From the NCBI GenBank assembly GCA_977017645.1, contig OZ360245.1, forward strand, positions 38,254,001-38,318,000: DNA of 64,000 nucleotides. Direction: 5' to 3'. This stretch comes from Torpedo marmorata. Lineage: Eukaryota. A program made the translations under genes and the position numbers. Each line of letters opens with the position of its first letter. Positions within the stretch are counted from its first letter, which is position 1. Shown piece by piece: positions 6,384 to 52,241 of this stretch. The notes under the pieces are model-generated. The model was given only the letters and a program-made list of their open reading frames with translations. It was not told where the DNA came from and did no database searches.

Positions 6384-7148
6384 GGCTTTTCACACCGCCG
6401 AGTGTAAGTGGGCAAACCGGCCGATTTCCCGGGAACTTACCTGGAAAACGTGCAGTCTGAAAAGGCCCAACCTTGCATGGCAGGTCAAAATCGACCGGGC
6501 TCCGAGACCTAGTCAGGGGGGTACTCTCGGAGCCCGGACGAGTTAACCCGGCAACTGTCTTCTGGCGGTCTGAAAAAGCAAATGGCTTACCTGGTAAGAT
6601 TACTGACGTCAGCGCTTGCGTCACATAAAACCCATAACAATAGATATAAGAGATACAACGATATAAATGTTACTTTAACGATGCCAAAGGGAACTAAGCC
6701 ACAATATTAAAAGTATTTTAAAATTGAAAAATTGTAGCTTACCGAAATAAAAAAAAAACGGGCCCGCTCAGGATGGCGGCTCAATGCGGGATCAATGGCC
6801 ATTTTTTTTACCCATAATCCCCCACGCAGCTGGAACCGCTCTGCGTTTCCCTGGTGCTGGCAAAGTGGCAGAGTGGTTCCAGCTGCGTGGGAGATTATGG
6901 GTAACGAAGGCGGCCATTGATCCCGCATTGAGCCGCCGCCGCCCTGAGCGGGCCTGTTGTTTTTTGAAACATTTCCTGTGAGTGCGTAACACGTCACTCG
7001 CATCGTCATCGTTGGAGGCGGGACCGCCCTTAAAATGCCTGGTTGCTACTTCACCTGGTAAGTTAGGCTGCAGTCTGAAAGAACCTGGAGGTCCAGGCTT
7101 CCCTGGAACTTTTCCTGGGACACAAGACATCGGCGGTGTGAAAAGGCC
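6384..7148. mobile_element. MITE with GGC(C)TTTTCACACCGCCGA terminal inverted repeats, PIF/Harbinger-like
   Basis: Left GGCTTTTCACACCGCCGA and right TCGGCGGTGTGAAAAGGCC, flanked by TA on both sides; non-coding; internal hairpin 6757-6957. Superfamily inferred from TIR resemblance. Confidence 0.8.
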
Positions 7149-7456
7149 TAGTGTTCAATTGCTGTTCTCGACCCTAGGAACAATGTGACCAATGAGGGAG
7201 AACCAGAGTGGAGACAAAACATCTTTGTTACGGTTTCCCTGAGAACAAAGAGCTTGCTTCATAGATTCGACCAATCATTTTGGGTTTTTTTAGTTTGTAT
7301 AATTTTGATGACCATGTGGCTTTCAGAGACCAAATGAATGGGTTGCAAACTGAAATAGACTGTTCCAGCATATGCACTTTCATTCATCTGATTTCTACTG
7401 TAACAATTTAATTAAAAAGATTCATCTTATTTTTTTTCTTTCTCTTCTCTCTACAG

Positions 7457-8102
7457 TTACTGACTTCAGTGTCAGTGCACTAACAACAAATGAAACCCGA
7501 GATGCAAGAGGACCAAATGTCCCCAAGATATCAGGGTTAGAACGAAGTCAGGAGAAGAGTCAGGAAGGTTCCAAAGAACAGCTGCTTGTGCTTTCTGTGG
7601 CGAAGGAGCCTGTTCCACAGGCTCAGATCCCACCTCAACCCCAGCCCCAATCCCAGTCCCTGTCCCAATCCCAATCCCAAATAAAACTCTGTTCTCCACT
7701 TCCTGCGCAGAACCAGATTCCACAGATTCCATCCCACTCACAGCCAAAGGTTCTGCCGCCATCCCAGGCTCAACCCCAAACCCAATCGCAACCCCTCCTC
7801 CCGTCCCAGCCCCTCCTTCCGTCCCAGCCCCTCCTTCCGACCCAATCCGTACCTGTCCCTCAAACCCAACCCCAGCCCCAGTCCATATCTCAGCCCCCAA
7901 CTCAAGTGCAGGCTCAAACACCCCAGCACCAACCTCAAGCTCCCCAGCAGCAGCCTCAAGCTCCCCAGCACCAGCCTCACCCTCAGCCACCATCTCCCGC
8001 TCAGCCAGCTCTCCCAGCTCAACTTCCCTCTCGGCCAACATCGCGTAGCCTCCCCCAGTCTCTGTCAGTCTACAGCAGCAGCCTAAGTCTGAACAGCATA
8101 AG
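7457..8102 (+). CDS. AUTS2: AUTS2 coding exon (human exon 7 equivalent), Pro/Gln-rich
   Basis: Polypyrimidine tract + CTACAG| acceptor; encodes ..GPNVPKISGLERSQEKSQ..SLSVYSSSLSLNSI; AG|GTAAGA donor; phase 1 in, phase 2 out. Confidence 0.93.
7787..7985 (+). repeat. Coding minisatellites: 18-nt (SQPLLP)x3 and 21-nt (PQ[H/Q]QPQA)x~3
   Basis: CCCAGCCCCTCCTTCCGT-like units at about 7787-7840 and CCCCAGCA[C/G]CA[A/G]CCTCAAGCT units at 7921-7985. Confidence 0.85.
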
Positions 8103-8669
8103 GTAAGAACTTGAAACTGTTTATTGCTCTATGTATGTGTTCTGAAGATACTGAAGTTTCCCCAATAAGCTCTGGCAAGCAAATGTACTGATTTCCAACT
8201 TCAATTCACTTTATACTCAGTTTAGTTGTAAAGAATGAATGGTTTCAGCAGTGAGTGCTGTCTGAACAATCCAATGTGACATGATCACATTTGACATGAT
8301 CTTATGTGATGCAAGTGCAGAGAAAGTGTTAACTTCAAATACAAATTTTGTCCAATATTAAAATATTGACGTACAGCGATGGAAACAGAATGGTGTCTTA
8401 AAAGCACATAGAGGTAGCCAGGACTAGGGCAGATTGAATGCAAACACATAATCTGCAGTTCTCAGTGAATACTTCCCAAGTCTTCTCAAGTGAGACAACG
8501 CAGTCATTCTATTGAGGAGAAATGCAAAATAGTGGAAGGGACAAAAATAAAGAGGAAAAATTTAAGGATGCTTTTGGAAATACATAAATCATCAGACTTG
8601 CAGGAAATGCATCCCTAATGTTCTAGAAATGGTTCTGACCATCATCTCCCAATCTTGTCTCGGTACAAA

Positions 8670-8775
8670 CAAGATGCTGTGCAGAAATACTCGGCAGGTC
8701 AGGTAGCATCTATGGAGGGAGAAGCAGAACTAATGTTTTGGGATTGTGACCTTTCAAAAGAACCTTTCATCAGTT
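8670..8775 (-). mobile_element. Old PLE pseudo-LTR remnant
   Basis: GAAATACTCGGCAGGTCAGGTAGCATCTATGG..CCTTTCATCAG resembles the pLTR family. Confidence 0.55.
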
Positions 8776-9313
8776 CACGAGTTTAACTGATAGGTGTTTT
8801 GTTTGTCATATTGTTTCTTGTGAAACTCCATTTTAGTCCATTACATTGACAAATAACTTATCATTAAATGTAGTGGATCGACCATTAAATTAATTGATAA
8901 TATAAAAACTGGCTAAGCTCAGTTTGTTTATAGTTTCTCTCTGATAATGGTGCGGTGCTGTTGAAGATCCAGCTAACCGAAAGTCAAGCAAGTTACAGTA
9001 CTTAAATTCATTAATTTCTTATTTGTCAGGAGTTTGATTCTCCCTAGCATTTTTTTTTCTCTAGCGTAAAACACCGAAGAAACTTGCCAAATTCATCTGC
9101 AGTCTCACTGGTTTGAAAAACGACCTTTCTATTTACTCAGGTTCTACAAGCCCCATTTTCTTGAACCTATTCTTTCAAAGAGGCAGCATTCCAAATTGTC
9201 TTGTTTGGTCAGTCGAGATCACTGACTTCCTCTGACTTTAAATACAACTTCGCATGTGTGCTTTGCCTCATAAGATCAAGATAACAGTGCCGATCAACTT
9301 CCCAGCCTCAGGA

Positions 9314-9986
9314 GTAAAACACGAAAATCTGTAGACACCGTGGTTGAAGTAAAAAACACAAATGCTGGAGAAACTCAGCAGGTCAAACAGTGTCTTTTTT
9401 GTAGCAAAGGTAGAAATACATAACCGACGTTTCGGGCCTGAGCCCTTCATCAAAGTATGAGAAAATGCCGGCAGGTGTCTGAACAAAAGAGTGAGGGGGG
9501 GAAGGGGGGGTGGCAAAGGCAGGAGATGATAGGTGGACGTTAGACTTAGACTGGTTAACCATCTGAGTCCTAATAACAACAGTATACATATACTGTACTG
9601 GTGACAGAGTAAAATTGGCAATGTAATTACAGAGTAAAATTGGCAATGTAATTTGCCCATGCCCCATAATTCACTAAAGGTGTTCTAGGTCTAGCACCCA
9701 TTATGTGAATTACATTGCCAATTTTACTCTGTCACCAGTACAGTATATGTATACTGTTGTTATTAGGACTCAGATGGTTAACCAGTCTAAGTCTAACGTC
9801 CACCTATCATCTCCTGCCTTTGCCACCCCCCCTTCCCCCCCTCACTCTTTTGTTCAGACACCTGCCGGCATTTTCTCATACTTTGATGAAGGGCTCAGGC
9901 CCGAAACGTCGGTTATGTATTTCTACCTTTGCTACAAAAAAGACACTGTTTGACCTGCTGAGTTTCTCCAGCATTTGTGTTTTTTA
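9314..9986. mobile_element. PLE-derived fold-back insertion: perfect 279-bp inverted arms (9350-9628 / 9708-9986) with a 79-nt loop
   Basis: Arms read as exact reverse complements; 14-bp TSD TCCCAGCCTCAGGA at 9300-9313 and 9987-10000; pLTR part matches 46345-46540 and 51930-52156. Confidence 0.95.
9877..9917 (+). ncRNA. Minimal type I hammerhead-ribozyme motif in PLE pLTR (mirror copy at 9419-9459 on -)
   Basis: UUGAUGA (C3U core)-A-GGGC/UCAG/GCCC stem II-GAAA-CGUC; stem I CAUACU/GGU(U)AUG; palindromic ACGU stem III; predicted cleavage after GUC at 9910. Confidence 0.75.
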
Positions 9987-10234
9987 TCCCAGCCTCAGGA
10001 TCAGGATGTTCCACACTGCTCTTTACCAGCCTGCCCAAATCTCCGTGACCCATTCTCCTTATTGCAGCATCCATTCAGTAAGTGACATCCCACCCAGTCA
10101 CTGGAACACTACTGCTGGTTTCAGCGATAGAAGCTTCTATGCTGCATACTGAGATCTGCGAGAATTTTCAACATGAGTGTGGAGAATCGTTGCTGAAAGC
10201 AAAGTTTCAACACCGGGAAACCTGACCTTCACAT

Positions 10235-17287: not shown

Positions 17288-17719
<432 letters not shown>

Positions 17720-39794: not shown

Positions 39795-39969
39795 TGTACA
39801 CAAAAGTGCTGGAGAAACTCAGCAGGTCATCAAAAGCAAAAGAAGGGCTCAGGCCCGAAACGTTGCCTGCCTTTTGCTTTTTCTGGATGGTGCGCGGCCA
39901 GCTGCATTTCTCCAGTTCTTTTGTGTACTGCACTAGGCCCCAGCATGTGCAGATTTCCTGTTTACATCC
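39795..39969. mobile_element. Short fold-back PLE pLTR insertion
   Basis: TACACAAAAGTGCTGGAGAAA..TTTCTCCAGTTCTTTTGTGTA inverted arms; degenerate 13-bp TSD AATGGTCTAACCC / AATGGTCCGACCC. Confidence 0.8.
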
Positions 39970-46344: not shown

Positions 46345-46691
46345 TGTAAAAAAACACAAATGCTGGAGAAACTCAGCAGGTCAAACAGTGTCTTTTATGC
46401 AGCAAAGGTAGAAATACATAACCGACGTTTCGGGCTTGAGCCCTTCATCAAAGTATGAGAAAATGCCGGCAGGCGTCCGAACAAAAGAGTGAGGGAGGGG
46501 GAAGGGGGGGTGGCAAAGGCAGGAGATGATAGGTGGAGAAAGGAGGGAGGGGACAGCAGCAAAGAGGGGGAGGAGGGATGGCTGGGTGGGTGGAAAAAAA
46601 ACTGGAAGGACAGGTAAGGGGGGAGGGGAAGGAAAAGGCAAGCAGGTTTAGTGGATAGCAGAATGGTTTAGTAGAAAGTAGAAAGAAAAAG
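46345..46691 (-). mobile_element. PLE 3' UTR/pLTR, 5'-truncated; hammerhead motif at 46417-46457 (-)
   Basis: Reverse complement of about 51800-52120; 14-bp TSD CATGATGGTGTGCT at 46331-46344 and 46692-46705. Confidence 0.92.
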
Positions 46692-49345: not shown

Positions 49346-50698
49346 TCGTGATGTCTTGATCACAGCAGACAAACAAAGAAATAAGGTCCCTCATTTCATC
49401 AGTGAAGCATTCATTGAACGCAAGAACAGAAGAATGTGGCAGGAAGAGCAACAAATGGTCCAAGAAATGGTGTGGGCTAGCCTGGTGAATCTACAACGGA
49501 AGACCCAGTGTGTCTTGATCTCTTGAAGCACCTTGTAATAGGCAGGGTGAAGTGCCCCCTTCCCCACTCCACTCCTCTCCCCCCACGCCATGGTTCAAAA
49601 GGAGCTCTGCAGTCTTACCATAATCCCCCAGGGACAATTAAACAGGGAACGGGAGAGAGAAGGTCTCTGAACATCCTCACCAATAGCAGAACCCAGCAGC
49701 TGATGGGAAGCCACTAACAGTTCGGTCAGGTGACAGTTACTCTCGCCGGGCCACTCGACTCCAGACCTTGTCAACCACGGAACAAGTCTGAATTCCAGAA
49801 CCAGGAAGAGATGGAGGGTCGAGTGGCCATCCTTGGCACCGCAGTAATATTAGACGAGCGCTGCACTGAGCAGCCCTGATCAAGCGGCACACCCATTGGA
49901 CAGCAGGGACAAAACTCTACCCTGCAAGATGGTTGCCAACCATCTCAGCCCCAGGGGTTCCTCAGGGCAGTGTTCTTGTCTCAACCATCTTTCAGCTGCT
50001 TCAGGAAGGGTTCTCCCTCCATCATCGGACCGGAAGCGGAGATGCTTGCTGAGAAGACATGTTGTTATGTCCCACCCTTTTCTCATCCCAAAGAACTCTC
50101 TGCCTCCACGCCAGAAGACCTGTGCATCATTCAAACTTGGGTTGCTCAACACCAAGTCAAATTTGTGCCACCCGAGTGGGAGGAAGTGACTTCCCACAAA
50201 ACTCTCAATGGCCATTACGGAATGGGTATTGAATTCTCGTCTTGCCGGCAGCACCCAAATCTGTGGGGAAATTTAAAAAAGGTTATCTCTTGAAAAGGAA
50301 TGTGAGCAGTATGTGGCAATACCGCTGACCCGCCTGTTGGTGGCACTGCTGAGCTCAGTGTGCAATGCCTGCACCATCAGCAAAGAGCTGCAACCTGGTG
50401 GATTTTGAATGAAATGCTTTTCAAGTGATTTATGAAATGCCAGGAATATTAATGCTATAAAGGCTCTAAATCCTGTAAGTAAATAATTTATGTCCAAAGA
50501 AACTTGAGGAATAGAGCTGGCACCCACTCAACCAATATGGAAGTTGGGGCAGTATTTTTGTGTCTTCTTATGCTTTGTGAGTTGAGGCAGTGTGACGATG
50601 CCCAATGCCCGGAGCAGGTGTTAATCCCTTCAGCTTATTTCCTGTTATCCATTCCCTTCACCAAATTTGGCTTTCCCGAATGGTTCGAGGAGAATCAA

Positions 50699-50868
50699 GA
50701 AGTAAAACACGAAAGCGTGCAGACACCGTGGTTGAAGTAAAAACACAAATGCTGGAGAAACTCAGCAGGTCAGCTCAAGCCCGAAACGTCGGTTCTGTAT
50801 CTTTATCTTTGCTACATAAAGGACACTGTTTGACCTGCTGAGTTTCTCCAGCGTTTGTGTTTTTACTT
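50699..50868. mobile_element. Short fold-back PLE pLTR insertion
   Basis: AAGTAAAAACACAAATGCTGGAGAAACTCAGCAGGTCA / TGACCTGCTGAGTTTCTCCAGCGTTTGTGTTTTTACTT arms; 12-bp TSD GAGGAGAATCAA at 50687-50698 and 50869-50880. Confidence 0.9.
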
Positions 50869-51139
50869 GAGGAGAATCAAACTTTGTGTGGCGTAACCAG
50901 TGGTGTTCAAAGGCTGTTCAGCACTCCGACCTCATGCAACCACACCCCCGCCTCCCCTTTGTTGCATTGCCTCTACTTATGTCGTTTATTGAATTAATGG
51001 GGTTTGAATGTGTGGGAAGTAAATGCAACTGGCTCCCAGCACTCGAGTAGGTGTTTGATGTGAACAGCTGACAGTGAGGCCACTGGACTAAGATGCAATG
51101 TTAACAAAGCATCTCAGCTCCTTTGTATTTGATGATTTA

Positions 51140-52241
51140 ATTTTTTTTAAAATTTAGACATACAGCACGGTAACAGGCCCTTCTGGCCCAAGAGCCCAAA
51201 TGCACCCAATTAACCTACAACCCCCTGTACGTTTTTGAAGGGTGGGAGGAAACCCATGCAGACTCAGGGAGAACATACAAACTCCTTACAGACACTTCCG
51301 GCACTTACTACAGGATCCCACCACCAGACACATTTTTCCTTCTCCTCCCCTCTCAGCCTTCCGCAGGGACCGCTCCCTCCGCGATTCCCTCGTGCACTCA
51401 ACCCTCCCCACCCATCGCACCCCCGGCACCTTCCCCTGTGCCCGCAGGAGGTGCAACACCTGCGCCCACACCTCCCCCCTCACCACGGTCCGGGGCCCCA
51501 AACAGGCCTTTCAAGTGAAACTACACTTCACTTGTACATCCAGAGAACTTATTTACTGCATCCGGTGCTCCCTTTGTGGCTTTCTCTACATCGGAGAGAC
51601 CGGTCGTAGATTGGGAGATTGCTTTGCTGAGCACCTCCTCTCCGTTCGCAACAACCGCGACCTCCCAGTAGCCAGCCATTTCAATTCCGAGTCACACTCC
51701 CACACTCACATGTCTGTCCCACCCAGGCTACCCGCAAATTGGAGGAACAACATCTCATTTTCCGTCTGGGCACTCTCCAGCCAGATGGCATTAACATTGA
51801 CTTTTCTGCTTTCCACTAAACCTGCTTGTCTTTTCCTTCCCCCCTCCCCCTTCACCTGTCCTTCCTGTTTTTTCCACCCACCCAGCCATCCCTCCTCCCC
51901 CTCTTTGCTGCTGTCTCCTCCCTCCTTTCTCCACCTATCATCTCCTGCCTTTGCCACCCCCCTTCCCCCCCCTCACTCTTTTGTTCGGATGCCTGCCGGC
52001 ATTTTCTTATACTTTGATGAAGGGCTCAGGCCCGAAACGTCGGTTATGTATTTCTACCTTTGCTACATAAAAGACACTGTCTGACCTGCTGAGTTTCTCC
52101 AGCATTTGTGTTTTTTTACTTCAACCACGGTGTCTACATATTTTCGTGTTTTACTTTCCTTACAGACAGCGCCGGATTCGAACCCCAGTCGCTGGCGCTG
52201 TGACAGTGTTGCGCTAACCGCTACGCTGAGCGTGCCACCCT
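51140..52241 (-). mobile_element. V-SINE split by a PLE insertion
   Basis: 3' part at 51140-51294 and 5' tRNA-like part at 52157-52241. Confidence 0.88.
51295..52156 (+). mobile_element. Penelope-like retroelement 3' part: Cys-rich linker + GIY-YIG endonuclease + pLTR with hammerhead (52008-52048)
   Basis: ORF 51242..: AFRRDRSLRDSLVHS..C.RRRCNTC..FTCTSRELIYCIRCSLCGFLYIGETGRRL..EH..VASHF; 12-bp TSD TCCTTACAGACA at 51283-51294 and 52157-52168. Confidence 0.95.

Follow-up and report, generated by a model that had tools for sequence, protein, structure and literature searches.

A palindromic Penelope insertion in an AUTS2 intron of Torpedo marmorata mirrors non-element DNA and points to a probable origin from two target-primed cDNAs

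An asymmetric palindrome in an AUTS2-family gene

The DNA analysed here, a stretch of 64,000 nucleotides from Torpedo marmorata (the window), carries a host gene of the AUTS2 family on the plus strand. The best named matches of its exon at 17342-17611 are to AUTS2, with fibrosin-like paralogues scoring lower, and the platypus AUTS2 protein aligns in nine collinear plus-strand pieces from 12579 to 62161 (tblastn, rows with at least 45% identity kept); Atlas gave no usable match for the AUTS2 exon. A candidate exon further upstream, outside the retained tblastn rows, ends near 8102 with an open frame and a donor-like sequence. Judged from these features it is a probable exon, and the insertion described below would occupy the intron between it and the mapped AUTS2 exons, in agreement with an earlier, sequence-only reading that had placed it in AUTS2. 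The probable exon (7354-8103) contains a long Pro/Gln-rich, repeat-like stretch for which no tblastn row was retained with any of three reference proteins. A separate 216-bp GC-rich palindrome at 6750-6965, 81% self-complementary and with A/T-rich ends, is unmatched to Penelope elements (PLEs) or to the rest of the window and looks MITE-like.

The insertion itself is made up of the following parts; X1 to X4 denote four runs whose contigs we aligned to positions 8500-9711.

9300-9313, no strand: left target-site duplication (TSD), 14 bp, identical to 9987-10000
9314-9349, minus strand: 36-bp PLE tail, on the left arm only; 35 of 36 positions identical to the family copy ending at 52154
9350-9537, minus strand: left pLTR arm, the PLE 3′ end, antisense on the plus strand and 5′-truncated at 9537; 96% identical to 46349-46537 and 51930-52116
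9538-9628, minus strand: left copy of the non-PLE core, 91 bp, unmatched elsewhere in the window; cover comes from one X1 contig and, in part, from X2
9629-9653, no strand: insertion-specific 25-bp tandem duplication where the two halves meet, exactly 9604-9628; 9629-9651 uncovered in X1
9652-9707, plus strand: spacer, continuing the source sequence and collinear with the right arm; seen in X1 (record 8) and X2 (about 9651-9711)
9708-9798, plus strand: right copy of the non-PLE core, exact reverse complement of 9538-9628
9799-9986, plus strand: right pLTR arm in PLE sense, ending at the tail-less family terminus; on the strand of the GIY-YIG-coding copy
9877-9917, plus strand: minimal hammerhead-like motif with ATG 9886 within its core, from sequence and the fold of stems I and II
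9987-10000, no strand: right TSD, 14 bp, identical to 9300-9313

The two arms, 9350-9628 and 9708-9986, are exact reverse complements at 279 of 279 positions, with no extension outward or inward, and the absence of any difference over 279 bp puts arm divergence below 1.1%. The flanking duplications agree at 14/14 positions and enclose the whole unit. The sequence-only reading was thus right about the perfect palindrome, its TSD and a single young PLE insertion with non-PLE DNA doubled inside. It had taken the arms as the full insertion, though, and overlooked the tail at 9314-9349; this PLE sequence is found on the left side only and makes the unit asymmetric, with a true extent of 9314-9986 (673 bp).

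PLE-family similarity stops at 9537, as the same reading had noted, where the copies at 46349-46537 and 51930-52155 carry on with other sequence. Likewise, 9538-9707 has no match of at least 12 nt elsewhere within the 64-kb window, the longest shared words being 11-mers, and the 25-bp duplication proved exact. The small loop hairpin described there indeed folds (9667-9712, z −2.6, reached by 2 of 200 shuffles). Note that the TT at 9652-9653 is compatible with both neighbouring sides.

The insertion derives from an endonuclease-bearing PLE

The longest family copy in the window (51239-52156, plus strand) is 96% identical to the focal insertion over the pLTR, and its ORF comprises a Cys-rich stretch and the C-terminus of a GIY-YIG endonuclease. 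Its Atlas feature scores are 0.95-0.96, in clusters with PF01541 on 18-27% of members; a Pfam scan of five peptides, including that of this copy, returned 0 families at E 0.1. All PLE copies in the window are truncated before the RT. Because the right arm lies on the same strand as the ORF of this copy, it reads in PLE sense.

Both ends of the insertion are family termini, as seen from the positions at which family contigs end: among the rows listed, these pile up at 9313/9314 (754 + 177 in X1, 575 + 250 in X2, 606 in X4) and at 9351, the left-arm counterpart of the right end (219 in X2, 241 in X4). The outer ends lie at +101 and +137 from ATG 9886, which sits in the hammerhead core and from which an open frame runs through the tail. 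The hammerhead-like motif has the core and stems I and II in the layout of PMC4209133, with U instead of C at core position 3 together with G8; the Rfam hammerhead models gave no match for the insertion.

With a GIY-YIG endonuclease, a tail of 30-40 bp, an inverted 5′-truncated copy and a TSD around the unit, this is an endonuclease-bearing PLE insertion, and its combination of tail, inverted truncated copy and TSD matches the architecture published for PLEs (PMC3846280; PMC8557442). A Cys-rich domain between RT and endonuclease is a clade feature named in PMC3846280, and the Cys-rich stretch preceding the endonuclease here suggests Neptune rather than Poseidon. A MITE or foldback DNA transposon was rejected: the ends are asymmetric retroelement 3′ ends, and the complete unit occurs once in the window, while the four runs did not show it.

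Two side observations concern the contigs that map to this family. In three runs, family contigs show recurring joints at pLTR positions 9388-9393 and 9437-9445, the latter in the hammerhead stem II region, which suggests preferred stop or join points of inverted arms. Moreover, contig depth in X1 and X2 rises thousands-fold over a short stretch at about 8690-8720, which also shows joints to the pLTR; this stretch is probably an old fragment of a related repeat.

One relative carries the core and spacer already joined to PLE, and the AUTS2 site of relatives looks empty

Over the listed flank contigs, X1, X2 and X4 diverge from the window by about 2.5%, 4% and 8%, which makes them relatives and not the individual sequenced here. 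These are the three runs with cover of the site, and in each the flank contigs cease to align at 9313, leaving unaligned remainders of 124 (X1), 175 (X2) and 1010 letters (X4). Since a filled allele would run on into the tail, contigs that end here look empty, and from these alignment ends, on the left flank side, we infer that the AUTS2 site is empty in X1, X2 and X4.

The insertion-specific junctions 9313/9314, 9628/9629 and 9986/9987 were seen in none of the four runs, the best of which shares 0.39 of the sampled words with no run reaching half. This is what an assembly or read fold-back artefact would also look like, but such an origin is hardly credible: the flanks differ, the perfect TSD sits at the very base where the relatives' contigs stop, the asymmetry is exactly the family tail, and two older units with the same layout lie in the window.

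The most informative contig is X1 record 8 (252 nt, depth 35.6). Of its letters, 118 align to 9511-9628 on the minus strand, two of them mismatching, and this arm part is joined to 9707 on the opposite strand, where 56 letters correspond to the spacer 9652-9707. Read in order, the contig consists of 78 unaligned letters, spacer, core and 27 nt of pLTR; that is, it reproduces window positions 9652-9825 in one orientation and with no mirror. Its core/PLE breakpoint is that of the focal insertion, so that the same non-element DNA is joined to the element at the same point in a relative, as expected of 5′ transduction; the PLE side counts 27 letters, below our 31-letter bridging standard, which is usual contig behaviour on entering a high-copy repeat. 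X1 cover falls in bins 9607-9628, 9652-9688 and 9689-9707, with 9629-9651 empty. X2 is covered over about 9651-9711 plus some 30 nt of core, with a gap between and a single depth of 19.6 (flank 36). The core is uncovered in X3 and X4, where flank depth is only 2-4 in X4 and X3 is without any flank cover. The fraction scanned was 92% of X1 and 55% of X2, for 101,459 and 41,287 aligned records, respectively.

Contig depth separates the core from the family. A depth of 35.6 against roughly 10^7 over the pLTR marks the core as low-copy and outside the family, and with one contig's depth per run in X1 and X2 it agrees with the earlier view that the inner segment is no regular family part. We therefore rejected the idea of a regular PLE subfamily segment; in addition, 14 X3 contigs at 9537 stay in family sequence. 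A related but distinct explanation is that core, spacer and truncated pLTR form a small non-autonomous PLE lineage of few copies, of which the insertion is one member. The depth of 35.6 in X1, compared with 9.4-13.4 for single flank contigs and 24.1 at a two-contig overlap, and the presence of the sequence in two relatives would suit such a lineage. Contig depth is not copy number, however, and on the core it comes from only one contig in each of X1 and X2, that of X2 (19.6) being below its flank, with no core cover in X4 or X3. We consider this lineage improbable.

Instead, core and spacer were likely joined to a truncated PLE before this insertion, at the source locus. The carried DNA could be plain source flank or older junction filler, depending on the nature of the 78 upstream letters, which could be a PLE arm. 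The sequence-only reading had placed three steps within this insertion: a switch of the RT from PLE RNA to foreign template, a stutter, and snap-back priming on its own cDNA. The core indeed occurs neither in the family nor elsewhere in the window, and R2 has extra-template junctions as well as snap-backs (PMC11371274). Yet the core/PLE junction, with the upstream spacer, already exists in the relative X1 (divergence about 2.5%), where the AUTS2 site looks empty. This speaks against its acquisition through template switching at the time of insertion; the spacer, moreover, continues the tail-less arm. Such a switch could have made the source chimera earlier, but as an account of this insertion we regard it as very improbable.

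The existence of core and spacer in relatives also led us to reject scrambled filler made in this insertion, a rejection that holds for this event and not for the origin of the source junction. The filler tests themselves were weak and mixed: 14 of 500 shuffles matched the DNA fold of the 91-nt core, as did 31 of 600 host windows, and for local repeats one of nine settings placed 9 of 1008 host windows level with the core or above it, with mostly unremarkable results for the rest. The 54-nt spacer alone was ordinary (240/500), and RNA of 9652-9830 in source orientation was not unusually structured (z −0.12). Exact 25-30 nt words from core and spacer had 0 matches in metagenome contigs, viral contigs and prokaryote genomes.

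A probable origin from two cDNAs of one chimeric template

We think it probable that a chimeric source copy retrotransposed by way of two independent target-primed cDNAs, yielding the 673-bp PLE insertion with its one-sided 36-bp tail and 14-bp TSD. A read-through RNA from the source would contain, in this order, upstream DNA, spacer, core, truncated pLTR and tail. PLE protein acting in trans would cut both target strands with nicks 14 bp apart. One strand would then be extended from the tail start site through 9628, with a stutter back of 25 nt, while synthesis on the other would begin at the pLTR-end start site and copy core and spacer as far as about 9652. Finally, the cDNA ends would be joined via a 2-nt TT/AA overlap. 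Both stops of the left cDNA (9628, then 9653) fall on the same base, which lies a few nucleotides inside the spacer stem; there the cDNA presumably stalled and was joined.

Several elements of this scheme have precedents. A PLE protein studied in purified form can nick and extend both strands; it is predicted to dimerize, and it starts reverse transcription at two sites that bound the tail (PMC11167929); mobilisation of host DNA in trans by pLTRs has also been described (PMC3846280). Because both cDNAs would copy one chimeric template, the foreign core would be mirrored without any template switch. Furthermore, three substitutions (9399, 9476 and 9480) are present on both arms and differ from both young PLE copies in the window. 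Two of them are minority states among the family contigs of X1 and X3, and the T at 9399 has a frequency of at most 5% among those of all four runs. Such shared substitutions are expected if an aged source was copied twice, but homogenisation after insertion would give the same picture.

With the tail on the left arm and the spacer continuing the right one, neither arm contains the other, and the snap-back signature of one arm holding all of the other plus the spacer is absent. If started at the tail, a cDNA would contain the spacer reversed; if started at the tail-less site, it would have no template for the tail. Two cDNAs fit both. Snap-back on its own cDNA, as the sequence-only reading had it, is thus hard to fit.

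The main alternative would start from the same chimeric source, form the second arm by fold-back (snap-back or self-priming), and then trim the hairpin by endonuclease or flip the spacer later. Head-to-head PLE palindromes have been hypothesised to arise by self-priming (PMC3846280), the tail has been explained by an endonuclease that resolves the intermediate (PMC8557442), and cDNA snap-back is documented in R2 insertions (PMC11371274). The 2-nt overlap at the junction suits snap-back as well as end-joining. Nevertheless, a target-primed cDNA is fixed to the target by its 5′ end and cannot lose its tail, a cDNA from the tail-less site has no template for one, and in vitro work traced the tail to a pair of RT start sites (PMC11167929). 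We regard fold-back as unlikely, though well short of negligible.

Two further TSD-bounded units in the window, of the same superfamily, have a tail and an inverted pLTR and bear on the same choice.

50685-50880 (unit 50700-50866), no strand: second TSD-bounded tail plus inverted pLTR unit; TSD 14 bp with 1 mismatch
2522-2766 (unit 2537-2752), no strand: third TSD-bounded unit, older; TSD 15 bp with 1 mismatch

In the unit at 50685-50880, the tail arm spans reference positions 1-76 and the tail-less arm 42-133, the latter reaching 57 nt further inward. Its polarity is that of the focal unit with an arm overlap of only about 35 bp, which counts against fold-back. The older unit, with a tail arm of reference 1-138 against a tail-less arm of 38-132, has a tail arm reaching about 6 nt further inward and thus the opposite polarity, the one that fold-back predicts. 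Overall, the tail-less arm reaches further inward in two of the three units; in this small sample, the 2-to-1 split fits mixed outcomes. No TSD was found for seven of the ten boundary pairs tried in the window. As an aside, short PLE pieces of 33 bp and about 90 bp lie in inverted orientation on either side of 12 bp of unrelated sequence at 39797-39930, where a TSD was not found with the settings used.

Apart from the one unit with fold-back polarity, further considerations weigh against two cDNAs. The anole PLE required in vitro RNA beyond the start sites, namely the first 172 nt of the ORF (PMC11167929), and a copy that ends at the tail and lacks this RNA may be a poor template. It is also conceivable that, once inserted, inverted repeats as perfect as these (279 bp) flipped their spacer and homogenised.

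Alternatively, a single-arm insertion may have been duplicated and inverted later by a DNA repair or replication event. The complete identity of the arms is compatible with this, as are the 25-bp duplication and the 2-nt overlap, which are common at repair junctions. Such an event offers no source for the 36-bp tail, though, and both outer ends are family termini with a TSD that bounds the whole unit, making a repair origin highly improbable.

Relation to known insertions

The carrying of upstream flank by read-through transcription is familiar as 5′ transduction in SVA and L1. In L1 twin priming, two target strands prime as well, with the second cDNA starting internally, inverting the 5′ part and leaving the 3′ end undoubled. 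By comparison, both cDNAs here would begin at the 3′ end, so that everything upstream is doubled.

Among PLEs, the closest likeness is to endonuclease-bearing insertions such as Pen2a_Av, with head-to-head 5′-truncated copies, a 30-40 bp tail at one end and a TSD (PMC3846280, PMC8557442); the tail is 31 bp in Pen2a_Av and 36 bp here. In contrast with the published PLE insertions as described in these sources, both arms here include a non-PLE stretch of 91 bp, whose one-directional chimeric form is visible in a relative. The capture of DNA by pLTRs in Adineta vaga (PMC3846280; PMC6431247) is similar in that non-PLE DNA moved in trans, bounded by a TSD and with an empty allele elsewhere. Cargo in that rotifer includes an NRPS gene, Pen1 spacers and unrelated sequence between solo pLTRs, and an N-rich ORF insert has been described as partly inverted, upstream of a pLTR (PMC3846280). 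According to these accounts the A. vaga cargo sits between pLTRs in one copy, unlike here, where it is mirrored and the source junction is identified. The base architecture and pLTR capture of host DNA are therefore already known (PMC3846280; PMC6431247).

The biochemistry of the anole Poseidon PAc agrees with the focal unit in that two RT starts bound the tail, the ORF begins from the hammerhead, and both strands are nicked and extended; one PAc site lies at 111-118, compared with termini at +101 and +137 from the ATG here (PMC11167929). The derivation of head-to-head insertions from two cDNAs is made here and does not appear in the portions of that paper available to us. R2 snap-back likewise places an inverted cDNA copy at the 5′ junction, but according to the text available its second arm is a sub-copy of the first, whereas here each arm has sequence that the other lacks (PMC11371274).

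In PMC8557442 the origin of head-to-head inverted PLE insertions is stated as unresolved, self-priming having been proposed in PMC3846280. Our literature search, with most subscription papers and supplements outside its scope, found no mirrored host DNA in a PLE palindrome, no two-cDNA model and no use of tail-versus-spacer polarity as a mechanism test. The available parts of PMC9977147 and bioRxiv 2026.07.22.740005 contain nothing on mirrored host DNA or a two-cDNA origin either.

RNA of the insertion and implications

A 279-bp stem in AUTS2 pre-mRNA had been foreseen by the sequence-only reading, and the predicted fold of the unit's RNA gives this long stem, a trivial outcome for a perfect inverted repeat. 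Rfam returned 0 matches at the gathering threshold, the best of 13 sub-threshold hits scoring 59.8 against 139 bits and being driven by the hairpin; the insertion thus matches no known miRNA or structured RNA family at Rfam's gathering score. Most likely, the element has no function and the 279-bp intronic RNA stem is a by-product. As a separate observation, positions 9799-9857 of the right arm, read on the AUTS2 strand, form a long pyrimidine-rich tract that ends in CAG, with AG at 9856-9857. This is a possible cryptic splice acceptor, which would be buried in the RNA stem.

The insertion shows a route from non-element DNA to a perfect intronic inverted repeat. Because a relative reveals how the insertion's unique tag was originally oriented, the models become separable: fold-back from a target-primed cDNA puts tail and spacer on the same arm, and two primings do not. 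This polarity test is applicable to thousands of copies in PLE-rich assemblies. More tentatively, and with the odds somewhat against it, PLEs may routinely prime from both target strands, such that a truncated copy under an upstream host promoter would, in a single step, export its 5′ flank in the form of a long and perfect inverted repeat. If routine dual priming is true, the side of the spacer relative to the tail would read out the integration mechanism genome-wide, and PLE-rich vertebrate genomes would acquire hairpin RNAs of host sequence that could silence the donor locus or direct editing against it.
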